A program made the translations under genes and the position numbers. Shown here one piece after another: positions 17,048 through 31,970 of a DNA stretch of 50,685 nucleotides. This stretch comes from Bdellovibrionota bacterium (GTDB lineage: Bacteria > Bdellovibrionota_C > UBA2361 > JBGSMV01). A model generated the notes under the pieces. It ran no database searches, had not been told where the DNA came from, and saw nothing but the letters and a program-made list of their open reading frames with translations. The stretch covers positions 1 to 50,685 of the forward strand of contig JBGSMV010000020.1 in NCBI GenBank assembly GCA_041739995.1, read 5' to 3'. How positions within the stretch are numbered: the first letter of the stretch is position 1; each line of letters starts with the position of its first letter.

Positions 17048-17380
17048 ATGCGGCTTCGATTGCTGAATGGACCATCTGAGGGGAAGGTTTTCGCCCTATC
17101 GCCAGGAAGTAACTTGATTGGCCGTTGGGACTCCGACGGAGGCGCATTTCCTGAAATCGATCTTGAGCAAGAGGATGTAGAAGCGAAGATCTCACGCAAA
17201 CATGCGGTGATATACGTCCAAGGGGACTCCGTTACCATCGAGGATGTGGGAAGTTTAAACGGCACATTCGTGAACAAAGTCACAAAGAGCGTTGCAGGAA
17301 AGAAGATACCGCTCTCTGTTGGCGATGAAGTGAACATTGGAGCGTTGGTATTCAAGTTTGAACTTGAAACGAGTTCCTAA
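17048..17380 (+). CDS. Single FHA-domain protein
   Basis: LIGRWD, ISRKHA, EDVGSLNGTFVN: the canonical pThr-binding residues are present. Confidence 0.9.
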   Translation: MRLRLLNGPSEGKVFALSPGSNLIGRWDSDGGAFPEIDLEQEDVEAKISRKHAVIYVQGDSVTIEDVGSLNGTFVNKVTKSVAGKKIPLSVGDEVNIGALVFKFELETSS

Positions 17381-17502
17381 GAGTCTGTGACACAGGCACA
17401 GACAACGCGTAATTCCAAATAAATCTCCCTCAGAAGTCAAAGTATATAAGCGGCAGAGGCTCGAGTACTCGACAAGGTCTAAGGTGTGAACTGAATCGCC
17501 GA

Positions 17503-17862
17503 CTAGGTCAGTAGATCTTCAATGTGTTTTACCAGAACTGCTGGCTTGCAAGGCTTGGTGAGTACCAAATTACAGCCTGCGTCGGTAGCTTCCTTGTGAA
17601 CTTCTGGATCATCGAGCGCCGTGAAGGCTACCACGGGAACGGTGATACCCTTGGCGCGGATGTGTCGCACGGTTTCTTGCCCGTTCATTTTGGGCATCAT
17701 CAGGTCTACTAGCACTGCATCAGGTTTCTCTTCTTCGATGCATTCGAGAGCCGAAAGACCGTCCGCGCGGCGCACCACTTCGAAGCCTTTGTCTTCAAAG
17801 AGGAAATCTACAATGTCGAGTGCGGTAACATCATCGTCGATAATGAGAATTTTCCTGGACAC
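17503..17862 (-). CDS. Single-domain response regulator (CheY-like receiver)
   Basis: ILIIDDD, VDLMMPKMNG (phospho-Asp), FTA, LTKP; GGAGG RBS before GTG. Confidence 0.93.
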   Translation of the reverse strand: MSRKILIIDDDVTALDIVDFLFEDKGFEVVRRADGLSALECIEEEKPDAVLVDLMMPKMNGQETVRHIRAKGITVPVVAFTALDDPEVHKEATDAGCNLVLTKPCKPAVLVKHIEDLLT

Positions 17863-18249
17863 GAATCCTCCTGTGTCGCGCGTGTGCGCTATTGCCCTTA
17901 TGTAACGTATCAGGGGCTATTACCCCTATACCTTACGATATTTGGCCCATTTCTAGAGATAGAACTTCTTTAGGTTTGATGCGAGGTCTTCAGAGCGGAT
18001 GCGAGAGCTTATGAAACACCGTTTCCAGACCAAGTCGTGCCTGCATTTAAATTGATGGAACTGTTCTATATCTTTTGATTCTAAACCTATGGCTACTCAT
18101 AGTTTGGGTTTTTTGCTTTTAGGCTTCGGTAGCCTGCGTTCACCTGTGCTCATGCTCATCGTCCTTGCATGAAGGCGAGATGAGGTTAGGAGCAGTTTAG
18201 CATGGGCGGCGAGTTCTCATAAAAGGTTTCTGTTCCACGATGGGTCGAC

Positions 18250-19602
18250 ATGTTTGCGCTTGAAGTTAGTTTCCAAGATGGCGTCTCGCAGCCCGAGATG
18301 ATCTTCATTCGACGCCCCCAAGGGGTGATCGGCTCCTCTGACTATGCGCATGTTGTTATTGAAGATCTTAAGGCGCTGGGCTGTCAGCTCCGACTGGTTC
18401 GTGATCTCGGACGAAAGTTTAAGTGCAAACCCTTGGCGAATGTTGAAGGAGCCGCTCTCCCGACTGCGTTTGAGGGAACCTACGATGGGCATGCGGACTT
18501 GGATCTTGGATCGGTCAAGCTGCATGTGACCACTCTCGATTTTGATTTGCTTCTTCGCGAGAGTGAGCCACCCGATCGCGCCGGTGTGCGTGTGCTTCGT
18601 CAATCTTGCGCGTTGCCCGGTCCGATGTTTCCCGCAGTGCTTGTGCGCGGTTCTCCGCCGATGGTTGTTTCGTTTGTCCCTGATCAACCAATTTATGTGG
18701 GCAGATCAAAGCAGTGCGCCCTTCGACTCGACAACGCTGATATTTCCGCTAAGCATGCGCGACTGGGATATGAAGCGGGCGAGTTCTGGATAGAAGATCT
18801 GGGTTCGACCAACGGCACGTTCGTTAATCATCAACAAATTTCAGGCCGAATGAACGTTGCGCCCGCGACAGCGATTATTCTTGGACGCGAAGTGACCCTG
18901 GTGGGGGTTACCTCACAGGATCAGCTCGATCAGGCAGCCAATGCGGGAGCGGAATTGAGCGCACGAGCGCCCGCTTCTGAGAAGCGCTACCCCGTGCTTG
19001 TCTCGGTGTCAGAAGTTGCCAGACCCGCAAGAGTCGCATTGTCCCCCGGAGTTTCGGTGGTGGTAGGGCGCGATCCTGGATGTGACATGTGGCTCGGTGC
19101 CCCGCACGTCTCTCGCCGACACTGTGTAGTCTCCATGAGCAAAACCGGAACGCTGCAAGTGCAAGACTCAAGCACGAACGGTACCGGGCATGAGGAGGGT
19201 GTGCTCAAACGTGGTGAGGTCATGGCAATCACCGGTGCTCCTCGAGTCTTCGATTTTGGCGGAGGGGTCACTTTGGCGATATGCTTTAGTGAGCAACAAG
19301 AGCGTGAGTTCTCTGGTGCCAGCGGCAGTTTGTTTACGTTTCGTCCGCCACCGGAAGGTCCGAGAGGACAAGCTTCCGCAGAGGTGCCGGGGCAACGACA
19401 GACGCCGGGCTCAATGGCGTTGTCGATGGCGCGAAGTTCTGCACACGTGCCCGCCCAAAAGGACCAAGGATTTACGGAGCAGCTTTTAGACTATTACCGT
19501 GCGCTTTCGCCAACGGGGCGAGTAATACTTACGTTACTATTTGTTCTGCTTGCGGTGTTGAGTGGAGTACTTTTAAGCCTGGTGTGGGGAATGATTCGCT
19601 AA
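18250..19602 (+). CDS. Tandem FHA-domain protein with a C-terminal membrane anchor (SctD-cytoplasmic-like position)
   Basis: FHA1 VGRSKQC...ISAKHA...DLGSTNGTFVN; FHA2 VGRDPGC...VSRRHC...SSTNGT; possible degenerate N-terminal FHA; TM helix at the extreme C-terminus. Confidence 0.85.
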   Translation: MFALEVSFQDGVSQPEMIFIRRPQGVIGSSDYAHVVIEDLKALGCQLRLVRDLGRKFKCKPLANVEGAALPTAFEGTYDGHADLDLGSVKLHVTTLDFDLLLRESEPPDRAGVRVLRQSCALPGPMFPAVLVRGSPPMVVSFVPDQPIYVGRSKQCALRLDNADISAKHARLGYEAGEFWIEDLGSTNGTFVNHQQISGRMNVAPATAIILGREVTLVGVTSQDQLDQAANAGAELSARAPASEKRYPVLVSVSEVARPARVALSPGVSVVVGRDPGCDMWLGAPHVSRRHCVVSMSKTGTLQVQDSSTNGTGHEEGVLKRGEVMAITGAPRVFDFGGGVTLAICFSEQQEREFSGASGSLFTFRPPPEGPRGQASAEVPGQRQTPGSMALSMARSSAHVPAQKDQGFTEQLLDYYRALSPTGRVILTLLFVLLAVLSGVLLSLVWGMIR

Positions 19603-19718
19603 GTAACGCGAGAGGTCAGCGAGAAATTTGAAGTTGAGGAAAACTTGTAGCAAGCCGGTTGTACCGAAGATTTGTTCAGGGGTTTTGAGAATAGCGTTTT
19701 TCACGGGAGTGGTAGCTT

Positions 19719-21014
19719 ATGTCTACAGATAGCACAGAGTTGGCGTTTGTTCGTTGTCCTTCTTGTCGGAGTCTTGTTCCCGCGGTCTCGACGCGCTGCC
19801 GTATGTGCGGTGAGACACTAGATCCTTCACAACAAAAACCGGAAGAGGGGTCAGGCGAATCTGCAAAGAGCGGACGTGTTCGCCAGAGAACCACCGCAAC
19901 CTCAAGCAGTGACTTGTCTGCTGCCGCTGGGCTCATTCGGCAGGAAATGGAGGGAACGCCCAAAGAGGCATTAAAAGTCAGTGCGGAGTCAGACGAGGAA
20001 GGCCTTCCTGAGCAATCGTCAGAAGGCCCGGCGGGCGCTGCCAAGCCTGAAGATACTAGTGCGCTGAGCGATGAAGATCCACTGAGTGCTTATATTCAAG
20101 AGGTAGATCTCGACGTGGAGGCACCGGCACCTAAGGGTTCCTCCAATGGTAGTGCGCACGCGGAGGCGGCTGTAGGTGCTGCGTCGACTGGGGCAGAGAG
20201 TTCCGGATCAACTGCTTCATCTTCTTCGGAGGGTAGCAAGCAGAGAGTGATTGTCGAGAGCGGATCGCGCAGAAACAAGCCTTCTGGGCTTTCATTCGGC
20301 GGTTCAAAACGAAGGGAAGATGTGCCTGAAGCTTCTGCGCGCGAGGAAGAGTGGAAGCCGGTTGGAGACCGTCCACGCCCCGCTAAGGAGCAGCAACCAG
20401 CTCGCGCGGACGATCGACGCGGCGGGGGCAATGATCGTCGGGAGAAGACGGACGATCGTCGAACGGCGCCACGTAGCCAGGAAAGAGGCCAGGAAAGACA
20501 GCAGGAGAGAAATCAAGAGAGAAGTCAGGAGCCTACAAGTCGACAGGAGCGCGCTATGGAACGCAATCAGGGGGAAAGAGGATCGGCCGAGCGAAATGAG
20601 AGACCACGTGATGGTGGGCGCAGCGAGTCGGGCCGTCGCTCAGACTCAGTAGAGTTTACTCAGCCGGGTACCGGAAAGTTGGTTGGATGGCTTGTAAACT
20701 ACTCTGATCCTAAAGGCGTTGCTGCTGAGTTACGTGAGGGACGGTTTTTTGTTTCTGGAACGAGTCTTAAACCTACTGACTTCGTGTTGAGTGACCCAAC
20801 AGTCTCAACTCCGCATGCGATGGTCGCTGCCGGAGCTCATGAGGGTTTGAGGGTGCAGGATCTCATGAGTGATCGTGGAGTCTGGGTGAAGCGTCGCTCG
20901 CATGAGAGCTTCCAACGGGTAAATGACGCGGTGAAGGTTGACCATGGGGATTGGCTGCGTTTTGGCGAAGTTGAATTTCTCGTGTGTCTAGTTGGCGCGG
21001 GAGCGGCTAAGTAA
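19719..21014 (+). CDS. Zinc-ribbon, disordered charged linker, degenerate FHA protein
   Basis: CPSC...CRMC; S/E/R/Q-rich middle; C-terminal LVGWLV...LSDPTVSTPHA...QDLMSDRGVWV...HGDWLRFGEV. Confidence 0.8.
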   Translation: MSTDSTELAFVRCPSCRSLVPAVSTRCRMCGETLDPSQQKPEEGSGESAKSGRVRQRTTATSSSDLSAAAGLIRQEMEGTPKEALKVSAESDEEGLPEQSSEGPAGAAKPEDTSALSDEDPLSAYIQEVDLDVEAPAPKGSSNGSAHAEAAVGAASTGAESSGSTASSSSEGSKQRVIVESGSRRNKPSGLSFGGSKRREDVPEASAREEEWKPVGDRPRPAKEQQPARADDRRGGGNDRREKTDDRRTAPRSQERGQERQQERNQERSQEPTSRQERAMERNQGERGSAERNERPRDGGRSESGRRSDSVEFTQPGTGKLVGWLVNYSDPKGVAAELREGRFFVSGTSLKPTDFVLSDPTVSTPHAMVAAGAHEGLRVQDLMSDRGVWVKRRSHESFQRVNDAVKVDHGDWLRFGEVEFLVCLVGAGAAK

Positions 21015-21038
21015 CAGTTAACCGGAGCGTATTGGCTA

Positions 21039-21953
21039 ATGGAGCGATTCAGGGTTTGGCGTTTGTTCGCCGTGGTCGTGTTAAGTTGCTGCTGCCTGAC
21101 AGGGTGCGGCGACGCGACCTTGCGCGATAGCCTCACCCAGGAACAAGCTAACGAGATCGTCGCTGCTTTGGTGGAGCGTGGAGTCCACGGTGTAGTTGAG
21201 CGTGAGACCGGGGGACGAGGGAAATATCGCGTCGGAGTTAAGCGCGGCAATTACTCTGAAGCAGTTTCGATTGTCCATGAACTGAAACTTCCTTCTGAAC
21301 CCCGTACTTCTTTCGCTGAGTTGATTGCACCGCGGGGATTGATGCCCGATCCGCGTGAAGTTGAGGCGCTAAGACTGGATCGCGCCATTGCGGCGGAAGT
21401 CGAGGAGGCATTACAAAGCGACCCATCAGTGGCTTCAGTTCGCGTGGTTGTGCGCCTTAACTCGGTCCTCTCAGCGAACTCAGAGAATTCAAATGGCACT
21501 GGTGCTGCGGTACTACTGCGGCTTCGAGACGGATCAAGTCTCAATAAAGAATCTCTGAAGACGATTCTTAAACAGACTTTGCCTGGCATTGAGGAAAGTC
21601 GCATCGTCTTAGAAGTCTTTCACGAAGCTGCCAAGAGCGTGGTGTCCAACGGGACCGAAGGGGTGGCTCGAATCGCGGGAGGACAGCTGCGCAAGGTGCC
21701 CCTGACTGAGTTTTTATGGCTTTGGCGCGTTCCTGAGGATGAATACAATAGTCTTGCTGGCTGGCTCATGCTGGGGATTATTGGAGTATTCGTACTTGGG
21801 ATCTCGCTGGGGTCCTTGCTGACATCAGCTCGCATTGCAGCGCGTGAGCCGAGTGCTGGAGTGAAGGGTTCTACTGCACGAGCACTTGGCAGCAGATCGG
21901 AGCGGAGCCGAAAAGAGCTTCCGGAAGCGCCTAAGGATGTAGGAGGCAATTAA
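21039..21953 (+). CDS. sctJ: T3SS inner-membrane ring lipoprotein (SctJ/YscJ family)
   Basis: LTGC lipobox; LTQEQANEIVAALVERG; LP...SFAELIAPRGLMP...AEVEEALQSDPSVASVRVVV; AVLLR; one C-terminal TM. Size and lipobox fit SctJ rather than FliF. Confidence 0.85.
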   Translation: MERFRVWRLFAVVVLSCCCLTGCGDATLRDSLTQEQANEIVAALVERGVHGVVERETGGRGKYRVGVKRGNYSEAVSIVHELKLPSEPRTSFAELIAPRGLMPDPREVEALRLDRAIAAEVEEALQSDPSVASVRVVVRLNSVLSANSENSNGTGAAVLLRLRDGSSLNKESLKTILKQTLPGIEESRIVLEVFHEAAKSVVSNGTEGVARIAGGQLRKVPLTEFLWLWRVPEDEYNSLAGWLMLGIIGVFVLGISLGSLLTSARIAAREPSAGVKGSTARALGSRSERSRKELPEAPKDVGGN

Positions 21954-22178
21954 GTGGTAGACACGCAACGATTTAGAAGTCTTAGTGCAGAGCACAGAGC
22001 GCTCGTCGCAGTGGCGGTACTGCTTGATGGTCGCGAAGCTGGAATGTATCTTGAGAATGATGCGGTCAATGGTGCGGGCCTAAAGCGAGCCGCTCTTGAT
22101 TTGGCGGGAGTCACTCCTGAGCTGCGTATGCCACTTGTGGGGACTTTGCTGCGTGATGCGCTTGAGGAGAAAGCGTGA
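21954..22178 (+). CDS. Small helical protein at the SctK position
   Basis: 74 aa, abuts sctJ and overlaps the next gene (GTGA); GGAGG RBS; function inferred from position only. Confidence 0.55.
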   Translation: MVDTQRFRSLSAEHRALVAVAVLLDGREAGMYLENDAVNGAGLKRAALDLAGVTPELRMPLVGTLLRDALEEKA

Positions 22179-22495
22179 GTGAGGCTTCAGGGGATCGGGA
22201 ATCCCTTGAGCGAGAATTTGCTCAGGTGATGAGGGAGTTAGAGCGGCGCGAGTATCAGCTGGCGCAGCTCGAGAAGAATTTAGGGGAATCTGAAGGAGTG
22301 CTCCGAGGGGTTGACCAGGAACACATGATACGGGTCGGGGATGTTATTGCATTGCAGCAGGCGGAAGTTCGTCGCAAGAGTGTGACGAAGGACATTGCTC
22401 AGTTTACCCGCAAGCTAGAAGAAGCGCGCGAAGATGTGCGTAGAGCACGTGAGAGGCGCGACGAGGTAGAAGCAGAACTTAAAGCCTTGCCATAG
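22175..22495 (+). CDS. Coiled-coil protein, SctO/FliJ-like
   Basis: Charged heptad-rich 106-aa sequence located just before sctQ. Confidence 0.55.
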   Translation: MSEASGDRESLEREFAQVMRELERREYQLAQLEKNLGESEGVLRGVDQEHMIRVGDVIALQQAEVRRKSVTKDIAQFTRKLEEAREDVRRARERRDEVEAELKALP

Positions 22496-22519: not shown

Positions 22520-23575
22520 GTGCAGGAAGGCGGAGATTCATCTGGGGAGCAGTCGTCGGGGGGGCAATCTTCCTCTGACGGTCTTATACCCTGGGACCCG
22601 CGCAGGTCTCTGCGGAAGTTAGACCCTCACGAGGTGCGACTTTCGAGAGGATTCCTGCGTTGTAGACCAGAGAAATGGTTTCCTGCATTTCCGGCTCATT
22701 GGCTACCACTTGCCCATTCGCTGGGTATCGATTTTCGTCTTACCGAAGCAAAACCAGGCTTGGCGCTGCCTAAAGGACTAGCGACCGCCTTCGCGTGTAG
22801 TGTTGATGACGAACCGCTAGGCATTTTCCTTGATGATGTTGCCACTAACGTGGTGTTGGAAGCACTCATTCCAGGCGGATCTCCTCAGGCCAATCGGGTA
22901 GTGGGAGAATATCTAGCGCGCAGGCTTTTGGTCAGCCTCGAGTCATCATGGAGCGGTCCTGAGTCTTCAGTCGTTCGCTTCGAAAGTGAACGCTCTCCTT
23001 TCGACATCGACCCGCAGGGAGTCGTGAAATTATCCTTTGAGATTCAGCGTAATCCAGCGTCCGTGTGGTTGGCGCTCGGTAAGGGACTGGTCGATCGGCT
23101 TGATAGTTTGTGGCGCAGACAGGTGCGATCTGTCTCGCGTTTAGCCGAAAGTGAAGGTGATGTGCATCTCGAACTGGCTCAGCTGGCGGTGCCGCCGGCC
23201 ATGCTGGTTGATTACCTCAAGCCCGGTTCAGTGATAGATTTGGAAGTGCCTGCATCAGATCAGGTAGTGATACGTTTTGCAGGGAAGCCGTTTCTTCCTG
23301 GTCGTTTAGGCGACATTCAGGGCAGGATTGGCGTTGAAGTGCTTTCTGGGCCAGTTCCCCCATCTTCGATTCCAGAGGGAACTACGCGACTCTCTGTGGC
23401 CAGTGCGATTTTTAAAATGGAGGGCACCCAAATGGCAGAGCTCTCCCAGCCTGGGGCAGCCTGGGACACGGGCGTGAGCCTTGGCGATGTGGTCGCAGTC
23501 GTAATCAACGGCGAGAAGGTAGCCGACGCCAGACTGTGCTTGTTCGAAGGCCGGCTCGCCATCAGCGTTCTTTAG
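22520..23575 (+). CDS. sctQ: Sorting platform / C-ring protein with two SpoA domains (SctQ; FliM/FliN-like)
   Basis: SpoA1 LKPGSVIDL...VVIRFAGKPFLPGRLGDIQGRIGVEV; SpoA2 LSQPGAAWDTG...VVINGEKVADARLCLFEGRLAISV. Confidence 0.78.
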   Translation: MQEGGDSSGEQSSGGQSSSDGLIPWDPRRSLRKLDPHEVRLSRGFLRCRPEKWFPAFPAHWLPLAHSLGIDFRLTEAKPGLALPKGLATAFACSVDDEPLGIFLDDVATNVVLEALIPGGSPQANRVVGEYLARRLLVSLESSWSGPESSVVRFESERSPFDIDPQGVVKLSFEIQRNPASVWLALGKGLVDRLDSLWRRQVRSVSRLAESEGDVHLELAQLAVPPAMLVDYLKPGSVIDLEVPASDQVVIRFAGKPFLPGRLGDIQGRIGVEVLSGPVPPSSIPEGTTRLSVASAIFKMEGTQMAELSQPGAAWDTGVSLGDVVAVVINGEKVADARLCLFEGRLAISVL

Positions 23576-23776: not shown

Positions 23777-24430
23777 GTGGGGCTTGGCCATATAGTCTCA
23801 GGTATGGAGACCTTACCGGCCTTTATCGGTGGCCTATTTCTAATTCTATTACTGACTTCCTTTACCAAGGTTTTCACCGTCCTCAGTATCGTGCGCGTTG
23901 GCGTTGGGCTCGAGGGCCTCGGCATGGGGGCAATCGTGGCCGGATTCTCACTGTTGGTGACGTTCGTCGTTATGCAACCACAGCTAGAACCTATTGGAGG
24001 ACTGCAAGCATTGCTTGAGGGCAAGCTTCGAGCAGAAGACCGGGTAGTCACCACCCACCTTAAGCCCTTCTTAGAGAGAAACGCTGATGCTTCGGTGCGA
24101 GAGCGTCTTGCGAAGCTGCGCACTTCAAACGGTGTGAAACCAAAGGACGAGCCGAAATCGGACGGTGCTGCTGTTGAGAATCCACAGGACGACGATCTTT
24201 CGTTGGTCACACTTGCGTTCATGCTTACCGAGCTGCGTGAAGCCTTTGAGCTTGGGCTATTACTGCTGCTTCCTTTTGTGGTCATTGATTTGCTGGTGGT
24301 GAACATCATCACCGCGCTTGGGGTCACTGATTTTCCTGCACGCATTGCCAGCCTTCCGCTGAAACTTTTGCTTTTCGTAAGCATAGACGGGTGGACGCTC
24401 ATCACAGAGAAACTGCTGGGTGGTTACTGA
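23777..24430 (+). CDS. sctR: Export gate subunit SctR/FliP, divergent
   Basis: TSFTKVFTVLSIVR, AFMLTELREAFELG, LPFVVIDLLV, SLPLKLLLFVSIDGW; no FliP-type signal peptide; alternative start ATG 23804. Confidence 0.88.
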   Translation: MGLGHIVSGMETLPAFIGGLFLILLLTSFTKVFTVLSIVRVGVGLEGLGMGAIVAGFSLLVTFVVMQPQLEPIGGLQALLEGKLRAEDRVVTTHLKPFLERNADASVRERLAKLRTSNGVKPKDEPKSDGAAVENPQDDDLSLVTLAFMLTELREAFELGLLLLLPFVVIDLLVVNIITALGVTDFPARIASLPLKLLLFVSIDGWTLITEKLLGGY

Positions 24431-24446
24431 GGGGAGGCATGACGCT

Positions 24447-24695
24447 ATGGCATCGGCTGAATTGATAGAAGCATTCATTGATGCAATTCGAACCTTGGTG
24501 TTGCTGGGTTTGCCGCTGGTGTTGGCCTGTGTGGTGGGCGGCTCGCTGATGGGAATTATCCAATCAGCCACGTCAATCCATGAACCAGTGCTTGGATATG
24601 CCGCACGTCTTGGAGCAGTGGCGCTTGTTTTTTACCTGATGCTGCCGAGCTTTACTCAAAGCGTGCTCAGTCTGGCTGAGCGGGTATTCCGCTAG
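24447..24695 (+). CDS. sctS: Export gate subunit SctS/FliQ, divergent
   Basis: Two TM helices around MGIIQSATSIHEPVLGY (aligns to FQAxTQIQEQTLxF); follows sctR; GGAGG RBS. Confidence 0.8.
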   Translation: MASAELIEAFIDAIRTLVLLGLPLVLACVVGGSLMGIIQSATSIHEPVLGYAARLGAVALVFYLMLPSFTQSVLSLAERVFR

Positions 24696-24725: not shown

Positions 24726-25316
24726 TTGTTAATTGCCTGCCTTATAGTCCTGCTTCTTTTCTGGCCACTTGGCCTTGGGGCAATAGTGCTGCCGTGGATG
24801 GGGTTGTGTTGGGCACTGTGGGAATTTGCGCCTGAGCTTGTGCCAGAGCATGGCGAACCGGTGTGGTTGATGTTGTTCGTCGCCTCTGTTCCGCTTTGTG
24901 CCGGTATTGCAGCAATTCTTGTCGAAAGAATTTCAGGGTTGGTGGAAGGAATTCGCTCGCTTCGGCAAGTCGCCGCGCTTTCGAGCCTCGTGCTGCTCGC
25001 TTCTCATGCCGTTTGGAGTGATTTTCTTTTCCGCGGCATGATGCATACCGGTACGAACATAAGTCCTGCCGCCTCAGGAGCGTTGTTGCTGGCATTAGGA
25101 AATGCAGTGGTGTTCTGCAGTGTGCTTAGTGCGCTTGCAGTGACCGTTACCCAGTATGTGGTGCGCTGGGGGGTAGTGTGTGGGTTTCGGATGTCGGCGA
25201 TGAAGCTTACCTTACCATGGACTGCCATCACGTTGCTTGGGGCGGTGGTGATTGTGACTTTTTTGGGGCAGCAACTTTCGGCATTTTTTTGGCAAGAGTT
25301 TAGCGCGGTGAATTAA
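24726..25316 (+). CDS. Polytopic membrane protein at the SctT/FliR position, highly divergent
   Basis: 5-6 hydrophobic segments between sctS and sctU; shorter than typical SctT; motif similarity weak. Confidence 0.5.
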   Translation: MLIACLIVLLLFWPLGLGAIVLPWMGLCWALWEFAPELVPEHGEPVWLMLFVASVPLCAGIAAILVERISGLVEGIRSLRQVAALSSLVLLASHAVWSDFLFRGMMHTGTNISPAASGALLLALGNAVVFCSVLSALAVTVTQYVVRWGVVCGFRMSAMKLTLPWTAITLLGAVVIVTFLGQQLSAFFWQEFSAVN

Positions 25317-25455: not shown

Positions 25456-25479
25456 AATTAGCAGAGATTGAGGCAAACT

Positions 25480-26157
25480 ATGGTAGGCGGAGACGAAACC
25501 GAGTGGCCAACAGCTCGAAAGCTTGAGCACCTTCGTTCGCAAGGAATTGTACCGCACTCGCGTTCTGCGGCGTTTTTGATGGTAGCGGCCGCTGCGGCTC
25601 TCACCTTGTGGGGTTTAACGGGCGAACTTTCAGCTTGGTGGGGCGAGTATCGCGGATTGATTTCAACCAGTGCAGAGTCAGGTGCGCAGTCGCTCGGTGC
25701 CTCTCGAGTTGAGACGGCGCTAGCGCCTTTCTTGGGCTTTTTTCTGCTTCCAGCCATAGCTGGTGCGCTTGGAGTACTGGTCCTTGGTATGTTTCAGAGT
25801 AGATTTTTGGTGCGCCTCGGTGCTTGTGGTTTCGACCTTTCACGGGTGATGTCGGGAAAGCAATTGCGGGGGTTTTCTGGGCGAAGTCTTGGAATGCTTC
25901 TGCGAGGGTACGCGGTGATTGCCGTGGTAGCGCTCTTAGGCTTCATGTTCTGGCCGCTCAGCACCTCGTTGACGGCGGTGGACCGCAGTGGCATCTCGCG
26001 CATTCCAGAGTTGGTACTTAGGGTGGCGGCGTTTGGGTTTGGGGTCATTGGAACCGCAATAGCGGTGATAGCTCTGGTGTGGAGCCATATTGAGTTTCGA
26101 CGTACTCATCGCATGACTCGGGCTGAGCTTCTCAGTGAAGCGCAGGATGATGGGTAG
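25480..26157 (+). CDS. sctU: SctU/FlhB membrane domain only (no NPTH cytoplasmic domain)
   Basis: ETEWPTARKLEHLRSQGIVPHS (the KTExPTxKKL...GQV motif), four TM segments, ends EFRRTHRMTRAELLSEAQDDG-stop. Confidence 0.8.
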   Translation: MVGGDETEWPTARKLEHLRSQGIVPHSRSAAFLMVAAAAALTLWGLTGELSAWWGEYRGLISTSAESGAQSLGASRVETALAPFLGFFLLPAIAGALGVLVLGMFQSRFLVRLGACGFDLSRVMSGKQLRGFSGRSLGMLLRGYAVIAVVALLGFMFWPLSTSLTAVDRSGISRIPELVLRVAAFGFGVIGTAIAVIALVWSHIEFRRTHRMTRAELLSEAQDDG

Positions 26158-26350: not shown

Positions 26351-27013
26351 TCACTGATTCGGGTTGAAGCGGTTGAGATACGCCGTGAGATCGGAAATCG
26401 CATCAGAAGTGAAGGCCCCGATATAGAGATTCATTTCTGGAACGTCAGAGAAAGCTACCTCAATCTCCGAATAGGTCTTATCGCGAGGTTCGGCTTGAAT
26501 TGATCCGTTGTGGCACCCCGCACATGATGAACCAAACAATATCAGACCCTCATCCTCGTTTCCTACTTGTCCATTTGGAATGCCAAAACATGAAGTATTT
26601 CGGTTCATGTCGTAACAGCCTTGCGACTGAGGAGTCGGAGTGGCCGTCGGAAGGGTAGGAGTAGGAGTTGGCGGTGGGCCATTGGTACAAGAACTGGCTT
26701 CCCTACGTTGAGTCTTTTTTATCTTTGCAAGCTTCTTGTCCACCTTAGCCTGATCTGCATCGGAGGACGCGAGCCGTTTATCTTTTTTGAGAGCGCGTAT
26801 CTGAGCCGCACGGCTAGTAAATACCCCAGGCGTGCTGAGCTTAGTGACTCCAGGAATCCATTTTCCGCCTACCATGCCGCACGAAGTAGTACCGGACTGA
26901 AAGATATCAGAGAGCGGTAGCGTCACCTTCTTAGGACGCGTAGCCGCAGATGCGGTTGCTATAGAGAAAATCACGCTGCACAGAGTCAATGCGGTCAGAA
27001 ATTTAGTCTTCAT
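26351..27013 (-). CDS. Secreted monoheme c-type cytochrome with an N-terminal Lys-rich module and PT linker
   Basis: Signal peptide ending ASA; CAGCH heme motif; candidate distal Met in VPEM; DLTAYL C-terminal helix. Confidence 0.78.
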   Translation of the reverse strand: MKTKFLTALTLCSVIFSIATASAATRPKKVTLPLSDIFQSGTTSCGMVGGKWIPGVTKLSTPGVFTSRAAQIRALKKDKRLASSDADQAKVDKKLAKIKKTQRREASSCTNGPPPTPTPTLPTATPTPQSQGCYDMNRNTSCFGIPNGQVGNEDEGLILFGSSCAGCHNGSIQAEPRDKTYSEIEVAFSDVPEMNLYIGAFTSDAISDLTAYLNRFNPNQ

Positions 27014-27031
27014 GCCGTAGTATTCCCTTCA

Positions 27032-28387
27032 CTATGCCGGCCGAATGATACCAAGTGGAGTGCGGGTGAAGCCCGGGAAAACGGCAGAGGGATTCAAGGA
27101 GAGGCCCTGAATGATGTCGCAGTACACATCTCGAATTTTTATCTGTGCATCGATGCCGTTTTGAGGCCTTTGAAGCTCGGCGACCGTAAAGTCTTGGCCA
27201 TACATTCCGCCTGCAACAGCTCCTCCAAGCAAAAACACTATTGAGGCATCAGCATGGTCAAGCCCCTTGGTCACGTTCTCATAATTCGTTCTTCCGAATT
27301 CAGAATTTATCACAATGATCATGTCGCTCCATATGCCCGCATTCTCGCAGTTCAGACGAAAGGCATTCAGGGCCAAATTAAGGTCTCGAAGCCGAGCAGA
27401 CATCCCCATTCGTGCGTTTGGATTCTGGCCCTGTGGGTCGGAATTCTCGTGGACGTCGTATCCACCTGTCTCGGCGTATCCGAATTGAGTGGGGAGCTGT
27501 CGAAAGCTGATATAGATATCCCTCAGTTGTCGGCCAATACCCGTGTTAGGAAACTGAGCTGTGAGTAACGAACATGTACCGTTATTCGAATTGTAGGTCC
27601 CGCATCCCGTCGTGAAAGCGGTTCCAACGGCGGCCACGGTTTGATTTAGCTGCGCCCAATTCTGTTTGATAGCCGCCGGTAAAGCGCCAGTGCCGTTTGC
27701 GGATGAGATGATTGATTGAGCGGTGGCCATTCTGAAGCCATACTCGCCGGTCGAGGTGGTTCCCAGCTCGGCTCGGTACCCAAAGTCAGCCAAGGAATTG
27801 AGAGCCGTTGGTCTAAATTGCGCACTCTGAACCGTGGCGCCGGTGGCTATTCCGCCACCGGTTAGATCTATTACACGGTAACTATCTGAGATGGCATTAG
27901 CCTCCATGATTTTTTGAATCCAGCCCGTATCATCAACGGTGTTTCCGCTATCTACCCCAGTTTGGTGGTCCTTTTGAGCCTCCTCATGTGAGCCGGTGTT
28001 GTTCGTAACTATGCCGCCCTTAAGTAAGATCGCACACTCACTAGGCGAACGGTTAAAGAGCGTTTGGAACTCGGTCATCTGATCATGCAGGGTGTAGTTT
28101 GAACCGTTGAGGGACAGGCGGGTGAAGGGCGCCCCCACGTTGTTCAAGAGCGGCGCTCCAATGGTCGGCCTATTAGTCAAGAGTTGACTCATCACGCTCC
28201 CGAATCCCGTTGGCTGAACGGGGATAAACATGTCACAGCCACCATTTAAAAAGACGTTCACCACCTTTCGCCCTGCGATCGGCGCGGCACTCGCGTCTCT
28301 TAAGAAGAGGCGTGACATCCCGAGGGTTGATGCGGTCGCCCCGGCACTTACTATCTTAAGAAATCCTCGTCTACTTACCTTGCTCAT
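27032..28387 (-). CDS. DUF1501 family protein, Tat-exported
   Basis: SRRGFLK twin-arginine signal; FLNGGCD, GSHEEA, GGYDVH, SEFGRT, GLDH, LGGAVAGGMYG. Confidence 0.85.
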   Translation of the reverse strand: MSKVSRRGFLKIVSAGATASTLGMSRLFLRDASAAPIAGRKVVNVFLNGGCDMFIPVQPTGFGSVMSQLLTNRPTIGAPLLNNVGAPFTRLSLNGSNYTLHDQMTEFQTLFNRSPSECAILLKGGIVTNNTGSHEEAQKDHQTGVDSGNTVDDTGWIQKIMEANAISDSYRVIDLTGGGIATGATVQSAQFRPTALNSLADFGYRAELGTTSTGEYGFRMATAQSIISSANGTGALPAAIKQNWAQLNQTVAAVGTAFTTGCGTYNSNNGTCSLLTAQFPNTGIGRQLRDIYISFRQLPTQFGYAETGGYDVHENSDPQGQNPNARMGMSARLRDLNLALNAFRLNCENAGIWSDMIIVINSEFGRTNYENVTKGLDHADASIVFLLGGAVAGGMYGQDFTVAELQRPQNGIDAQIKIRDVYCDIIQGLSLNPSAVFPGFTRTPLGIIRPA

Positions 28388-28426
28388 ACCCGCCTCTCCT
28401 ATTTAGGATTGTCTTTTCCCTCAAAT

Positions 28427-30556
28427 CTATTTGCTCAGAAAATGAGGGTGCATCGCCATAAACACATACAGATAGCGCGCTTTATTATTTTGATGATTGG
28501 TGTTTGAAAAGCCATTTGCTTCGCTTGGAATTCCGTTCAGTAGGTTGTCGTACTTGGCTCTCGTGTACTGGATGCCATTATTGGGATTATAGTTGTAATC
28601 CATGTAGTAGACCAACTGATCAACGTCGTCGTTACTGAGCGTCACCCCAAGTTTGTTAGCGACGAATTGAATCACTTCTGCTGCGGTGTAGTCGCCCTCT
28701 GGGAGCACGCGCTGCGGCATCCATCCGAGGCCATTTCCGTCCACTAGCCGAGCGAGTTCGGTGCTACCAAGGAGATACGCCGTAGTTAAGTTCGCAGTCT
28801 CCATAAGTGTGTAAGGCCGAGACCAGTTCGCATCAGGGAAGAAGAACACTCCTTCTGAGGGAAGGGTCGTGGTATATCCCATTCGAGCCACACTCCCCTG
28901 AGTGTAGGCTACGACGAATTCCTGGTCGGGAGTTCCTTCACGCTGATTGATATTGATTCCTACCTCCAGAGTCTGTGAACCGATGTCATGGCGTGCCATC
29001 TCCAAAGTACGCGCAAGCTCAACCGCAACCTGGAACGAGTTCTTCGCTACGGTATTCTTATAGTTGCCATGATAGAACGCCTTAGATAGCAAGAGTGTTC
29101 GAAGGCTCGCGTCCAAATCGTAGTTATTCGCTACCAGCACTTGCGAAAAGGTTTTGATCAGCTCCTGAGGCGGAGCGGCGGTGACATACCAGCGCAGGAT
29201 TTCTTTGGAGATAAAGAGCGGCGCTCCGGGATGTTTCTCGAGGATGCCGAACACCACCTCTGAATCGGAAGACGAGCTAAACTGGTGGGGCTCTCCCTCG
29301 AAGATTGGAAGAATCGCTGGATCATGATCTTCGGGGCTAAATACTCCCCGCCATCTTTGGATGCCTCCTCCGTCGGTAAAGGGGGACACTCTCCATCCGC
29401 TGATGTTGCGCGCGATACGGTAGATATCACCAAGCGTACGGTTTCCCCCATTTCGGAATTCCACATAGTTGTCGACCAACACTCCCGTGGCTTCATCAAA
29501 TCTCTGGGTTCCGACAGTAAAGAGCTCTTGGAGTTCGCGGGCGTAGTTCTCATTTACATTTCCCAAAACATTCTGGTTGTTGCTGAGCCACAGCAGCATC
29601 ATAGGAGAGCGCTGTGCGCGCACCAGTTGAACCGCAAACTTTGACTTTCCCGGAAACGCTTGGGCAAAATCTGTGGGAAGTGGAAGATTGTAGGCGATTT
29701 CGCCAAGCAAATTGAAATAATCCCACCACAGCACGAACTGTGGGTTTCCAGCAGTCGAATTGCTTAATACGTCGTGCCCAACCGTCCAAAGCCCGAGCAA
29801 GAAGTGCCGGAGATTCTCTCGGAAGGGGTTTCTGGTGTTGATGGCGAGCTCCAGGGCAGCTTGTCGAAATCCTCGAAAACGAAAGCTGTCTCTCGTTTGA
29901 GTCAGGAGGTCACCAAGACCCGACCCGCCTCCGACACCATTTGAAGCATTTTTTCTGTCCTCAATGCGATCCGCCAAGGTCGCATCCTCAGCTTTGACCA
30001 GCATCAACTCATCCACTGCAGTTGCAAGCCCGGTGGAGAGTGCTTTATCAACAACCGCTTGTTCACCCGAACTTCGGCCGTAAGCTGCCTTCTCGAGGAG
30101 ATACCGCACCGTTTCCTCAGATACCGGACCGGAATAGGCCTCCATGGAGAACTCGTCAGGTATTACCGTGGGAGTAGGAGTAGGCTGTATTGGCCCGGCG
30201 GTGCAGGTTTGCTTCGCATTAGATTGGTAACGCTTGAGGGACTTCTTTTCCTTGTTGAGCTTCTTAATCAGCTTTGCATCATCCTCCGCGTCGAGGCCCT
30301 TAAGCTGCTTTAGAATCTCCTTAAGTCGGACGCCTACTTTCTGAAACTTGTTTCTCTTGGCGCGGATAGGGATCCACTTGTTCTTTACAAGGGCGCAGGT
30401 GATCGGGTTTCCATCGGTCCCGGTTCCCTCAAACATATTTTCTGGACTGGGGGAGAAAAGCGATCGAGTCTTGGGTCCATTGGCTGCATGGGCAGAGTCT
30501 CCTAAGAGTAGGGAGAATGAGAAAATTGTAACCGCTATAATCGTTGAATACTTCAT
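28427..30556 (-). CDS. DUF1800 family protein, secreted, with an N-terminal Lys-rich module
   Basis: Signal peptide ending AHA; SPMMLLWLSN...NENYARELQELFTVG; upstream of DUF1501 as is typical. Confidence 0.85.
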   Translation of the reverse strand: MKYSTIIAVTIFSFSLLLGDSAHAANGPKTRSLFSPSPENMFEGTGTDGNPITCALVKNKWIPIRAKRNKFQKVGVRLKEILKQLKGLDAEDDAKLIKKLNKEKKSLKRYQSNAKQTCTAGPIQPTPTPTVIPDEFSMEAYSGPVSEETVRYLLEKAAYGRSSGEQAVVDKALSTGLATAVDELMLVKAEDATLADRIEDRKNASNGVGGGSGLGDLLTQTRDSFRFRGFRQAALELAINTRNPFRENLRHFLLGLWTVGHDVLSNSTAGNPQFVLWWDYFNLLGEIAYNLPLPTDFAQAFPGKSKFAVQLVRAQRSPMMLLWLSNNQNVLGNVNENYARELQELFTVGTQRFDEATGVLVDNYVEFRNGGNRTLGDIYRIARNISGWRVSPFTDGGGIQRWRGVFSPEDHDPAILPIFEGEPHQFSSSSDSEVVFGILEKHPGAPLFISKEILRWYVTAAPPQELIKTFSQVLVANNYDLDASLRTLLLSKAFYHGNYKNTVAKNSFQVAVELARTLEMARHDIGSQTLEVGININQREGTPDQEFVVAYTQGSVARMGYTTTLPSEGVFFFPDANWSRPYTLMETANLTTAYLLGSTELARLVDGNGLGWMPQRVLPEGDYTAAEVIQFVANKLGVTLSNDDVDQLVYYMDYNYNPNNGIQYTRAKYDNLLNGIPSEANGFSNTNHQNNKARYLYVFMAMHPHFLSK

Positions 30557-31056
30557 AACAACCCTTTGAATCTGGTCTCCGAAGAGCCGCCTCCAGCGAA
30601 CTCTCGCCCCACCGGTGTGTTTTCTCTTCCTTGGGCACACGCTGCCCCTAGGCCTTCAGAGCAAGATCTGCACCAACACAACCGGTCCTGGTCTGCCTCG
30701 TGGTACCTAGGGAATAAGTCCTGTTGGATTCGTCCTCTAGGTACCTGTACACCCACGTCCCATTCCACCTCTTCGTCCCTTAAGGACAGGATAATGGAAC
30801 GTTACTACCCTCGTCGGTGCACTAGTGCGGGAATCCATTAGAACAAGCTGCGACTTTGAACTAAGGCACCCTCCACCGATTGGTATCGGTTCGATCTTCA
30901 AAACGGTAAAGCGTTTGAAGGTCCCTAAAATCCTAGAGTGGGTCAAAAGGTTGGGTGTGCCGGTGCCACTGAATCCGAACTCCTTTCAGGCCATTATCCC
31001 GGTTGCAGAGGGCAAAACTGAGCGATATCCAGGTGCCACACAATTCGCTAGACTTC

Positions 31057-31217
31057 GTAGTGTGCTGAGTCAGAAGTTCATTCAAGTATTTTTCTCGCTG
31101 TTCTCGCTGTTCTCGCTGTTCTCGCTGTTCTCGTTGTGTAATTCATTAAATATATTCACAAAGAGAGCAGCGAGCTCGGCGAGAATTATTCATCGAACTC
31201 GTAACTCAGGACACTAG
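31057..31217 (-). mobile_element. MITE-like element, family B copy 3 (reverse orientation, expanded 9-nt array)
   Basis: TIRs gtagtgtgctgagtcagaagttc / gaactcgtaactcaggacactag (18 of 23 match); ttctcgctg x4 plus ttctcgttg at 31092-31136. Confidence 0.82.
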
Positions 31218-31224
31218 GCATCGT

Positions 31225-31539
31225 ATGAAGAAGTCACTTGTCGCCCCCCCAGACCCCTTTGGACTTTCGCCACTTGCCCTGTTGCTTCCGGTAATCGGGC
31301 AAGTCGGCGGCCTCACGCCTCTTACCTCTTCTCTGTTTGCTCGATTTGAAAAGGTGCAGGCGCTTAAAACTGAAGTTAGTTCCGGTGCGGGCGCTGATTC
31401 AGCGCGAACAGCGTTTCGTCGGCTTGCAGCCGAGGAGGCAATGCTCAAAGAGGTTCTCGATTGGCTCGCGGTGAAACCAGAGCAGTCCGGTGTTCCCTCT
31501 GAAAAGGCGCAGTTAGCCGAAGGGGGATCTGATCAATGA
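31225..31539 (+). CDS. Hypothetical helical protein, coupled to the TPR gene
   Basis: 104 aa; ATGA overlap with 31536. Confidence 0.6.
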   Translation: MKKSLVAPPDPFGLSPLALLLPVIGQVGGLTPLTSSLFARFEKVQALKTEVSSGAGADSARTAFRRLAAEEAMLKEVLDWLAVKPEQSGVPSEKAQLAEGGSDQ

Positions 31540-31970
31540 AAGCAGCAAGGCCAAGGCTCAGTTCAGAAGTTCTTAAGCGCGGCTATTCGGATGAAGAGAT
31601 AGCGCATATTTATGAGCTCGCCAGATTCTCGATTGAGATTGGAGAGTTTCGGCGCGGCGAATTAATCGCCTCTGGGCTTGTTGAGGTAGCTCCAGAGTTT
31701 GCCCCAGCGTGGTTGTGTGTGGCGTTTGTGCACTTACACAATCGTGCCTATGACCAGGCTATCCAGGCGGCTCAGCACGCCCTTAAGGTGGACTCTGGCT
31801 CAGAAGCGGCACTGCTGTACCTTGTAAGTGGCTACCTGGGGGCTGAAGACTATAATTCAGCCGGCACACACTTAGGGGAGCTGGGTGAGCTGTTTGAAAG
31901 TGGGGGGCTTGATGACCCACATGCACTGCGATTCTACCGGGCGCTTTTAGCGCGCTATCAGAATCGATAG
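31536..31970 (+). CDS. TPR protein resembling SycD/LcrH-class (or SctY) T3SS chaperones
   Basis: GYSDEEIAHIYELA...GEFRRGELIASGLVEVAPEFAPAWL...YDQAIQAAQHALKVD, a three-TPR pattern. Confidence 0.65.
   Translation: MKAARPRLSSEVLKRGYSDEEIAHIYELARFSIEIGEFRRGELIASGLVEVAPEFAPAWLCVAFVHLHNRAYDQAIQAAQHALKVDSGSEAALLYLVSGYLGAEDYNSAGTHLGELGELFESGGLDDPHALRFYRALLARYQNR

Follow-up and report, generated by a model that had tools for sequence, protein, structure and literature searches.

A stripped-down, FHA-associated type III secretion gate as the probable partner of a Tad pilus in a Bdellovibrionota bacterium

The Kil apparatus and the needle-less T3SS* of Myxococcus xanthus (PMC8460266, PMC12075869, PMC10433427) form the closest known system to the one analyzed here, which we call system A. 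Kil and T3SS* co-localize and are mutually dependent (PMC12075869), and many FHA proteins are encoded in Kil clusters (PMC8460266); a 2025 review restricts the co-occurrence of Kil and T3SS* to Cystobacterineae. Kil/T3SS* and system A share a Tad-like pilus module with many FHA proteins, LcrH-like TPR proteins and a T3SS-like basal body lacking secretin, needle and translocon. The link to Myxococcus drawn in the original prediction was apt. In both cases the two parts are proposed to act jointly at cell contacts. The Myxococcus systems lie in separate clusters, whereas in system A SctV is part of the Tad operon and the two halves often form one cluster. The T3SS* locus holds SctD, SctI, SctN, SctL and SctRSTUV together, but the system A loci lack SctD, SctI, SctN, SctL and the C-terminal domain of SctU. 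The system A locus has no Kil-type secretin gene and, unlike Kil/T3SS*, has a built-in Ser/Thr kinase, a PP2C phosphatase and a membrane pseudokinase.

Classical injectisomes (Ysc, Mxi-Spa, Hrp, Rhc) resemble system A in having a lipoprotein SctJ, a SpoA protein SctQ, SctR, SctS (and SctT), SctV and a TPR chaperone-like protein. They differ in that the system A loci lack secretin, needle, inner rod, translocon, SctD ring, SctK, SctL, SctN and the SctU C-domain, and that system A forms a clade outside NF-T3SS in SctV and SctR trees. The flagellar export apparatus has homologous gate proteins and a FliJ-like coiled coil, but the genome keeps a separate flagellar set, and the system A loci contain none of the genes for rod, hook, FliF, FliG or Mot proteins. 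Type VI secretion in Pseudomonas aeruginosa is controlled by threonine phosphorylation through PpkA, PppA and Fha1 (cited in PMC8460266). There, as in system A, the secretion cluster itself encodes a Hanks-type kinase, its PP2C counterpart and FHA proteins that read the marks, but the type VI machine is unrelated, and system A has at least four FHA proteins plus a membrane pseudokinase. We found no paper describing a composite Tad/T3SS cluster such as system A.

The window, a stretch of 50,685 nucleotides, carries the following features.

16994..17380, + strand: free single-domain FHA protein (PF00498 E 6e-14; 128 aa from GTG 16994, 110 aa from ATG 17048)
17503..17862, − strand: single-domain response-regulator receiver, divergently transcribed (PF00072 E 3e-27, 95 bits)
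18250..19602, + strand: tail-anchored cytoplasmic FHA-FHA protein, 450 aa (PF00498 E 4e-28, two stretches)
19719..21014, + strand: Zn-ribbon-like/FHA protein, 431 aa (PF00498 E 2.5e-5)
21039..21953, + strand: SctJ inner-membrane ring lipoprotein (PF01514; TIGR02544 86.8 bits, not reaching the cut-off of 162)
21954..22178, + strand: 74-aa four-helix protein of a small dedicated family, its start abutting the sctJ stop
22175..22495, + strand: 106-aa coiled coil, candidate SctO/FliJ-like stalk (PF02050 E 4.5e-5, TIGR02473 E 3.9e-4, each below cut-off)
22520..23575, + strand: SctQ-like cytoplasmic ring protein with SpoA domain(s) (PF01052 E 2.6e-11, residues 212-275)
23777..24430, + strand: SctR (FliP family) export-gate subunit (PF00813, 132 bits)
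24420..24695, + strand: SctS (FliQ family) (PF01313, 45 bits)
24726..25316, + strand: probable SctT, multi-TM, 196 aa (conserved position; hhalign to SctT/FliR Prob 51%, E 1.5e-4)
25468..26157, + strand: SctU, membrane domain only (matches PF01312 positions 2-220 of 335)
26351..30640, − strand: interrupting block of cytochrome-c-like lipoprotein, DUF1501 and DUF1800 genes, outside the system
31225..31539, + strand: 104-aa conserved protein of no known family (invariant P16, L20, P22 and W80 in an alignment of 13)
31536..31970, + strand: TPR protein resembling T3SS class II/SctY chaperones (NCBIfam SctY 27 bits, LcrH_SycD 26 bits, both below cut-off)

The genes from FHA-FHA to SctU (18.2-26.2 kb) are co-oriented and intact. 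Neither they nor the free FHA, receiver and TPR genes contain an internal stop, and lengths agree with those of the orthologues. Open reading frames and domains bear out the predicted set, namely the FHA, sctJ, 74-aa, coiled-coil, sctQ, sctR, sctS, SctT-like and truncated sctU genes, with genes for a free FHA protein, a receiver and a chaperone-like TPR protein close by. The receiver is present as described, but on the minus strand. Domains and synteny also show that the cluster is a genuine, conserved module with FHA proteins around it, derived from a T3SS but non-flagellar and needle-less. The window ORFs of at least 80 aa gave no match to a SctV, SctN, SctL, secretin, needle, rod or hook family, as originally noted.

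Of 19 loci from relatives, 16 have the receiver as a conserved neighbor of the cluster (47-87% identity), 9 have an orthologue of the free FHA protein beside it (37-60% identity), and 18 carry the 431-aa protein. The latter has an N-terminal CxxC...CxxC, a long low-complexity or disordered linker and a partly degenerate C-terminal FHA domain. The 450-aa protein has a degenerate FHA-like stretch at its N-terminus and two canonical FHA domains; its sole TM helix is its C-terminal end, and it therefore has no periplasmic domain.

The lipobox Cys23 of SctJ is invariant in an alignment of 11 sequences (11/11), and the protein ends in a TM helix and a conserved cytoplasmic tail. In SctQ one SpoA domain is clear and the second (residues 320-350) is weak here (fliN E 0.0012). 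In the G005 orthologue it is the second that Pfam matches. The coiled-coil slot is filled in relatives by an ORF of 98-140 aa. The probable SctT is shorter than the references (260-283 aa) and gave no match in a Pfam search and no specific match in fold searches. SctU lacks the autocleaving cytoplasmic domain, and its orthologues are 202-242 aa long in all 14 loci that cover this part of the cluster, thus truncated in every one; no spare FlhB C-domain was found in G010, G022, G024 or G035.

Two small proteins accompany these genes. The 74-aa protein has a mean column identity of 50% over 13 aligned orthologues and an AF2 model with pLDDT 92.6. Family searches gave no match. A search of 1.84 billion representatives at E ≤ 1e-3 returned 121 members of its own family, nearly all of 52-104 aa. 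The 104-aa gene always lies immediately upstream of the TPR gene, overlapping it by 4 bp in the window. Its product shows no similarity to YscX and is a candidate chaperoned substrate or partner; the TPR protein aligns with Yersinia LcrH (hhalign Prob 90%, E 1.5e-6) and YscY (Prob 86.5%). Among the compared loci, the cytochrome-c-like/DUF1501/DUF1800 block separates this pair from sctU only in the window genome, and it is missing in all 13 relatives' loci that show this junction.

The idea of a machine without SctV did not survive the genome-wide search. A dedicated SctV is encoded on contig C47, directly after tadC in a Tad-pilus operon, and it is the missing gate subunit of the window cluster; system A is not SctV-less. 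The operon runs receiver proteins, PP2C, FHA protein, Ser/Thr kinase, TadZ-like ATPase, Flp pilin, CpaB, TadA, TadB, TadC, SctV and a membrane pseudokinase-HEAT protein. In all 18 fetched loci of the same order sctV is the next gene after tadC, followed by the pseudokinase gene in 17 of the 18. The tadC-sctV-pseudokinase order recurs in G026 and in 8/8 loci of other orders where sctV was found.

At least 16 related genomes, G005 and G036 of the same order plus 14 of other orders, have both halves in a single uninterrupted cluster. The run Tad-SctV-pseudokinase-FHA-FHA-SctJ and onward is continuous in G005, G036, G064, G053, G054 and G067, with the 450-aa FHA gene directly 3′ of the pseudokinase-HEAT gene in fused loci. 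For G045, G047, G049, G050, G051, G058, G062, G065, G070 and G071 continuity was judged from the positions of TadZ and SctJ, which are 12-18 kb from each other and share a strand. In most of the window's order the halves are unlinked (the window genome G000, G013, G017, G022, G010, G012), and co-transcription is therefore not required. Of the 124 genomes of the class, 107 have SctJ-A in a profile search at E ≤ 1e-20 (85/91 of the order, 22/33 of other orders) and 117 have TadZ-A, including 73/73 high-quality ones. G026, 94% complete, keeps Tad-SctV and gave no SctJ-A match; the fetched G012 and G021 loci have no SctRSTU after sctQ. The window probably holds the type III half of a conserved two-part machine of uncultured Bdellovibrio-like bacteria, made up of a stripped-down gate, a Tad pilus and a phosphorylation switch.

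The window genome has three FHIPEP genes (C36, C47, C5), three FliP genes (C60, C74, C55) and three FlhB membrane domains. A complete flagellar export set (C36, C53, C60) with its own fliPQR and flhBA genes is separate from the window cluster, and a third set, system B (C5, C74), is a different atypical T3SS-like one. The predicted lack of an ATPase holds for the system A loci but not for the genome, which carries an orphan FliH-like/SctN-like pair. Both genomes of genus g24 (97% and 94% complete) have systems A and B, and no T3SS-type ATPase was found in either. In both the SctV tree and the SctR tree system A makes up a clade of its own (100/99 support in each), outside the flagellar and injectisome clades (Flag+NF, 92/95 and 94/91 respectively), and these genes do not branch inside the flagellar clades. 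Grouping A with the FlhA of the same genome is rejected by an AU test (p = 5.6e-7).

We think it rather probable that the type III gate and the Tad pilus are joined in a composite envelope machine. Counted against this are the unlinked halves in most of the order, the incomplete sets of G026, G012 and G021, the ATPase-free genus g24, the absence of a secretin from both system A loci, the T2SS-like and T4aP-like contexts of the genome's two secretins, and the failure to identify an effector. One alternative is autonomous, periplasm-directed type III export, for instance of envelope-remodelling or lytic enzymes, with Tad sharing only regulation (kinase, phosphatase, FHA) and ancestral linkage and not being part of one machine. 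The unlinked halves in most genomes of the order fit this, as do the ring, gate, C-ring-like and chaperone-like proteins that the T3SS half has of its own. Yet the obligatory gate subunit SctV stays right after tadC in 18/18 loci of the order, even when the rest has moved, and the membrane pseudokinase and tail-anchored FHA protein bridge the halves in all fused loci. We regard autonomous export as unlikely. Less likely still, and improbable, is that the T3SS-derived proteins have given up export and act for the pilus in sensing or energy transduction, for example as an SctV-based ion-conducting module that drives or gates the dynamics of the Tad pilus. The loss of the SctU substrate-switch domain from all orthologues, the short, divergent SctT and the lack of an ATPase (in the loci, and genome-wide in g24) would suit such a role, but the retention of SctR, SctS, SctQ, a stalk-like coiled coil and the TPR protein with its small partner is hard to explain without export.

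The window lacks several canonical genes and NCBIfam scores fall below equivalog cut-offs, as would be expected of a decaying flagellar or injectisome remnant, or of spare parts for the flagellum or system B. Against this, all frames are undamaged and the genes keep their order and lengths over 21 families of the order and beyond, which with the spread of SctJ orthologues through the class speaks against neutral decay. Moreover, J/F, V, P, Q, R and B genes are present separately in the flagellar set and in system B, G022 and G024 keep system A without flagellar FlhA/FliF matches, and A forms its own clade. A remnant or a store of spare parts is very improbable indeed.

For the composite machine, we infer contact-triggered, phosphorylation-gated export, likely used in predation or other contact-dependent antagonism. 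Cell contact or envelope stress would lead the kinase/phosphatase pair to set phosphothreonine marks, and the FHA proteins might read these and so assemble or open the gate beside the Tad platform. Powered by the proton-motive force, whether or not the orphan SctN-like ATPase contributes, the gate would pass unfolded lytic or toxic proteins or pilus-tip factors into the periplasm, possibly including the 104-aa protein bound to its TPR chaperone. The Tad pilus would then present or push the cargo outward, as the pseudopilus does in type II secretion. The same model has been put forward for Kil and T3SS* in Myxococcus. It is gene linkage that suggests physical contact between Tad and T3SS, and NCBI taxon labels of relatives that suggest a predatory lifestyle; threonine phosphorylation would be the putative switch.

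A further genome, G328 (9.0 Mb, 68% G+C), presumably Myxococcus-like, carries 'long' and 'short' non-flagellar loci whose SctV and SctR do not group with clade A. Its SctR falls among the flagellar and injectisome groups without a resolved position, and its SctV joins the injectisome side.

The analysis established the parts list, linkage, conservation and separate ancestry of a type III-related machine, here called system A. Its genes lie in two places in the source genome G000: a T3SS half in the window (contig C55), and an operon on contig C47 in which the genes of a Tad pilus run into sctV. ORF listing and HMM scans of the window gave the genes below, and the original prediction had correctly described the row of FHA, sctJ, sctQ, sctR, sctS, sctT-like and truncated sctU genes.

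Genes of the T3SS half in the window and their neighbors (position, strand where assigned, description, basis)
16994/17048-17380, free FHA protein (FHA128), upstream of the row; ORF listing and HMM scans
17503-17862, minus, single-domain receiver, upstream of the row; ORF listing and HMM scans
18250-19602, plus, 450-aa protein, two canonical FHA domains followed by a TM helix at the extreme C-terminus; ORF listing and HMM scans
19719-21014, plus, 431-aa protein with Zn-ribbon-like N-terminus, low-complexity linker and C-terminal FHA domain; ORF listing and HMM scans
21039-21953, plus, SctJ; TIGR02544 and PF01514 matches
21954-22178, plus, 74-aa ORF; ORF listing
22175-22495, plus, 106-aa coiled coil, weakly FliJ-like; HMM scans
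22520-23575, plus, SctQ; HMM scans
23777-24430, plus, SctR; HMM scans
24420-24695, plus, SctS; HMM scans
24726-25316, plus, 196-aa membrane protein in the SctT slot; position
25468-26157, plus, SctU, membrane part of the family only; positions 2-220 of 335 in PF01312
31225-31970, 104-aa ORF and TPR protein, downstream of the row; ORF listing and HMM scans

The genes of the T3SS row overlap or are separated by 0-30 bp, with exceptions of 116, 201, 151 and 24 bp. At 26351-31217 a minus-strand block, together with a 130-aa ORF without relatives, parts sctU from the 104-aa/TPR pair. The block encodes a cytochrome-c-like lipoprotein (CxxCH) and DUF1501 and DUF1800 proteins, and among the loci compared this interruption is found in G000 only. 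Elsewhere the window carries housekeeping genes (MreB, RNase G, MetRS, PurH, PurD and LspA), and its G+C content is uniform. Amid the housekeeping genes are also a WD40 beta-propeller protein (3096-4730) and a protein of 559 aa whose C-terminal domain is SUFU-like (PF05076; 42506-44185). HMM scans of the window's ORFs found no member of the SctV, ATPase, SctL, secretin, needle, rod or hook families.

The lack of SctV that the original prediction noted holds for the ORFs of the window but not for the system, which has a dedicated SctV after tadC on C47 (C47:35774-37876, the third FHIPEP gene of the genome). In the C47 gene order a 199-aa receiver is followed by a protein of 732 aa with a receiver domain at its C-terminus, an ORF of 145 aa, a PP2C phosphatase and an FHA protein. 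Next are a Ser/Thr kinase of the Hanks type, an ATPase resembling TadZ/CpaE, a Flp pilin of 64 aa, CpaB/RcpC, TadA/CpaF, TadB and TadC, and then SctV (700 aa, a full-length FHIPEP protein), an 834-aa protein with a degenerate kinase domain and HEAT repeats, and a thioredoxin-like protein. Tad/Flp parts like those of Kil, the Tad-like system of Myxococcus xanthus, are thus all present on C47 (PF00437, PF00482 twice, TIGR03177 with 144 bits, PF13614 and the FHA protein); the pilin scored 31.4 bits with Flp_Fap, for which the cut-off is 32.2. Neither an RcpA/CpaC/KilC secretin nor a prepilin peptidase was recognized in the C47 locus or in the Tad loci of 18 relatives.

In 18/18 loci fetched from other genomes of the order tadC is directly followed by sctV, and in 17 of these the pseudokinase comes next, the contig of the remaining genome (G003) stopping before that point. 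In G005, from another family of the same order, the whole of system A is a single co-oriented cluster of ~26 kb, running through receivers, Tad, SctV, the HEAT protein, two FHA proteins, SctJ, a 76-aa gene, SctQ, R, S, T, SctU-N, an 83-aa gene and the TPR gene. G036 has the same Tad-T3SS junction at a contig end. The continuous arrangement is the form seen outside the order, where it occurs in 14/33 genomes: four as fetched loci (G064, G053, G054 and G067) and ten by having TadZ and SctJ 12-18 kb apart on one strand (G045, G047, G049, G050, G051, G058, G062, G065, G070 and G071). The remaining 19 have TadZ and SctJ on different contigs, or one of them below thresholds, or (G042) no recognized sctV on an 11.6-kb contig. 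The split form, in which RNase G, FHA and receiver genes precede the T3SS half, is kept across many families of the order, and therefore looks like the result of one old translocation of that half, in which SctV and the pseudokinase were left among the pilus genes. The best case for the halves working together is that the pilus operon retains an obligatory subunit of the gate.

System A is widely conserved. The class, which in the taxonomy used makes up the entire phylum, was sampled as 124 species genomes, 91 in the order and 33 in other orders, and searched with a profile of 11 SctJ-A sequences, using a threshold (E<=1e-20) chosen after a bimodal distribution of scores appeared. SctJ-A matched at this level in 85/91 genomes of the order and 22/33 of the other orders; outside the phylum only three of 277 sampled genomes reached it. 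Some of the misses are diverged and not absent, since G053, G054 and G067 have the fused cluster. TadZ-A was found in 117/124 genomes, and in all 73 of high quality. Gene order and lengths are conserved in the T3SS half (SctU has 202-242 aa, the SctT-slot protein 188-220 aa), and two small proteins of 72-84 and 74-96 aa are present in every complete locus. Exceptions are G026 (94% complete), which keeps Tad, SctV and the pseudokinase with no SctJ-A match, G006, with a short SctJ-like ORF, and G012 and G021, whose fetched loci lack SctRSTU downstream of sctQ. Insertions of unrelated genes (with ORFs as long as 615 aa) separate sctQ from sctR in five loci (G014, L089; G011, L092; G015, L088; G040, L091; G029, L087). 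From the conserved order and lengths and the wide distribution of orthologs, system A is not under neutral decay, an objection that the original prediction had raised against itself.

With R, S and the membrane domain of U in the window and V on C47, the injectisome gate set is divided between the two loci. A probable SctT is supported by position and an hhalign Prob of 51%; fold searches were unspecific, and neither Foldseek nor VIA-align matched an AF2 model of the protein (pLDDT 71) to a FliR/SctT structure. The autocleaving (NPTH) cytoplasmic domain of SctU is absent from every ortholog. An orphan 93-aa FlhB C-domain gene lies on contig C42 (C42:68850-69131, minus; L017:8850-9131; PF01312 positions 262-334) and has a counterpart in G017. 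It was rejected as a regular partner of system A, being absent from G010 and G022, where the only copy is that of another T3SS-like set (system B), and from G024 and G035, which have no copy. SctJ is a lipoprotein inner ring with an invariant lipobox Cys. The TM helix is the last element of the 450-aa FHA protein, which has no periplasmic part and is therefore not an SctD ring protein; it matched TIGR02500 with only 15.9 bits. No secretin SctC, needle SctF or translocon was found among the ORFs of the window or C47, where very small needle-like genes could escape HMMs. The only two PF00263 secretin genes of G000 are in T2SS-like and T4aP-like contexts.

SctN and SctL are likewise missing from both loci of system A. 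The absence of an SctN ATPase, which the original prediction noted for the window, holds for these loci but not for the genome, which encodes an orphan FliH-like/SctN-like pair on C36 (C36:17394-19518, minus; L041:9394-11518). The pair is below all NCBIfam equivalog cut-offs (TIGR02546 390 bits, cut-off 605); G000 also has a flagellar FliI. Orthologs in 38/41 relatives form a stand-alone two-gene module with variable surroundings, which do not tie it to A or to B. The pair is kept in G022, which has no matches to flagellar FlhA, FliF or FliI, and it therefore probably serves system A and/or system B. A dedicated ATPase is thus not universal: in the two genomes of genus g24 (97% and 94% complete) both systems occur with F1-like ATPase pairs only.

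It could be asked whether the genes in the window are simply the flagellar export genes of this bacterium, or ordinary parts of an injectisome. The G000 assembly (3.8 Mb, 91% complete) contains three FHIPEP genes, three FliP genes and three FlhB membrane domains. One set is flagellar, with flhB-flhA-flhF-flhG on C36, fliP on C60 and flgC-fliE-fliF-fliH-fliI-fliJ on C53, so the separate flagellar set that the original prediction had proposed looking for does exist. System B is another set, atypical and different from A, and is kept across the order. On contig C5 (C5:11541-18180, L014) it comprises genes for a sigma factor, SctJ2, a weakly SctQ-like protein, SctV2, whose C-terminal half is diverged, and a TPR protein; on C74 (C74:41677-52786, L015) are FliO, P, Q and R, a 262-aa FlhB membrane domain and a 486-aa FHA/SctD-like protein. 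Its FlhB is split, a 1176-aa GAF histidine kinase lying between the 262-aa membrane part and a 99-aa C-domain. The fliPQR/flhB genes of the window are thus not the only ones in the genome, and by the genome-wide inventory they do not belong as ordinary components to a canonical injectisome at another site, so that two objections the original prediction had raised against itself fail.

Nor do they branch inside the flagellar clades. In a tree of 28 SctV sequences (24 in an earlier version; the named injectisome references are Ysc, Rhc, Mxi and Hrp) all Tad-linked SctVs form clade A (support 100/99), and those of system B form clade B (100/100). FlhA of G000 falls with those of Thermomicrobium, Ralstonia and Azospirillum in the flagellar clade (100/100). 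On the injectisome side these four references are a clade (100/99), joined by the long SctV of genome G328 and those of G254 and G160 at 98/97 and adjoined by the short SctV of G328 at 80/67. A and B lie outside the flagellar plus NF-T3SS sequences (92/95). The SctR trees recover A (100/99) and agree in placing B outside (94/91); A is outside there too (94/91), and thus not within the NF-T3SS clade. An AU test rejected the grouping of A with the FlhA of its own genome (p = 5.6e-7), so that system A, with a separate flagellar set elsewhere in G000, is not a flagellar T3SS. Grouping A with the short G328 sequence (p = 0.03) or with the long one plus G254 (p = 0.02) was rejected weakly, these groups having been named after the tree was seen. 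SctV-A scored 564 bits with the NCBIfam SctV model (cut-off 692) and 519 with that of FlhA (cut-off 772), which agrees in kind with the trees. The deep position of A and B should be regarded as provisional, because branches are long and several rows deviate in composition. In two genomes, G012 (L097) and G021 (L100), a fliPQR set lies directly upstream of the Tad-SctV operon. These were considered as relocated A genes and rejected, as they are flagellar by the SctR tree.

From these parts a working scheme can be proposed. The SctJ ring and SctR/S/(T)/U-N/V gate would constitute an export channel in the inner membrane, opening on the periplasm, with no needle, rod or secretin to carry substrates beyond it. 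Loss of SctU-C fits a system without a hook or needle to measure, and there would then be no substrate switch. The G-R, S-x-x-H and N-G signatures, the phosphothreonine-binding residues of FHA domains, are intact in FHA128 and in two domains of the 450-aa protein; in the 431-aa protein the FHA domain is degenerate in part. Together with kinase, PP2C and pseudokinase, these putative FHA readers suggest that system A may be assembled or gated by Thr phosphorylation. Such control is exerted by the PpkA/PppA/Fha1 pathway of the T6SS, which is cited for Kil in PMC8460266. The receiver proteins would provide a His-Asp input. For the outward step the pilus might carry or push T3SS-exported cargo as a T2SS pseudopilus does, a model that PMC12075869 proposes for Myxococcus.

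The closest comparison is with T3SS*, the needle-less T3SS of Myxococcus xanthus. PMC10433427 describes homologs of SctD, J, I, Q, RSTUV, N, L and LcrH in one cluster, with Kil in two others; T3SS* lacks secretin, needle and translocon. Kil and T3SS* co-localize and are mutually dependent (PMC12075869), and according to a 2025 review (PMC12428579) their co-occurrence seems restricted to Cystobacterineae, one suborder of the myxobacteria. System A resembles T3SS* in having neither secretin nor needle. Unlike T3SS*, it lacks SctD, I, N, L and the SctU C-domain in its loci, and it differs further in the physical fusion of the Tad and T3SS genes, the smaller parts list and a built-in kinase/phosphatase/pseudokinase circuit. 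It also appears to belong to a separate gate lineage, where the Myxococcus side is represented by G328. This genome (9.0 Mb, 68% G+C) has two non-flagellar loci and no flagellar one, the pattern given for Cystobacterineae by Abby and Rocha (PMC3459982), and it is a stand-in for Myxococcus by inference only. The literature searched contained no description of a fused Tad/T3SS cluster; the supplementary distribution tables of PMC8460266 and PMC12075869 may list kil homologs in this lineage.

A whole class of uncultured Bdellovibrio-like bacteria carries both modules in one cluster, or in two parts over which the gate is still divided. The arrangement offers independent genetic evidence for a Tad pilus and a type III gate being able to make up a single functional unit, and it provides a minimal parts list, with no SctD, SctI, SctU-C, secretin or needle. 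The natural variants (fused, split, with and without ATPase) make the cooperation testable. The SctV and SctR trees suggest that the dichotomy of flagellum and injectisome is incomplete for type III export gates. A bolder reading, to which we give somewhat less than even weight, is that A and B are two unrecognized deep lineages of export gate, on a par with 'flagellar' and 'injectisome'. System A would have arisen inside a Tad machine as one of its integral parts, its gate, without SctU-C, SctD or a dedicated ATPase, feeding cargo to the periplasm and thence to the pilus under the control of kinase, phosphatase, FHA proteins and pseudokinase, and the Tad-T3SS partnership would be independent here and in Myxococcus. 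If true, this partnership would be a general solution for contact-dependent attack.

The two small proteins of the T3SS half were also examined. Relatives of the 74-aa protein number 121 representatives (E<=1e-3) among 1.84 billion proteins, nearly all of them stand-alone small proteins. The idea that it is a FliG-N-like adaptor found no support: there were no Pfam or PDB sequence matches, the Atlas search was empty, Foldseek listed the FliFc:FliGn entry 5tdy only at E of about 5.6, and the 121 relatives in the representative library all differ from FliG in length. A predicted complex with the cytoplasmic tail of SctJ (262-304) returned 'no answer' with a score of 0.00, which is evidence neither way. 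The 104-aa protein has no similarity to YscX. Its gene always directly precedes the TPR gene, with a 4-bp overlap in G000. By hhalign the TPR protein is similar to chaperones of class II (Prob 90%) and SctY type (86.5%), a similarity that for TPR proteins is not very specific. The 104-aa protein is a candidate chaperoned substrate, and its invariant SPLxxLLP stretch recalls the P-x-L-x-x-P chaperone-binding motif of translocators.
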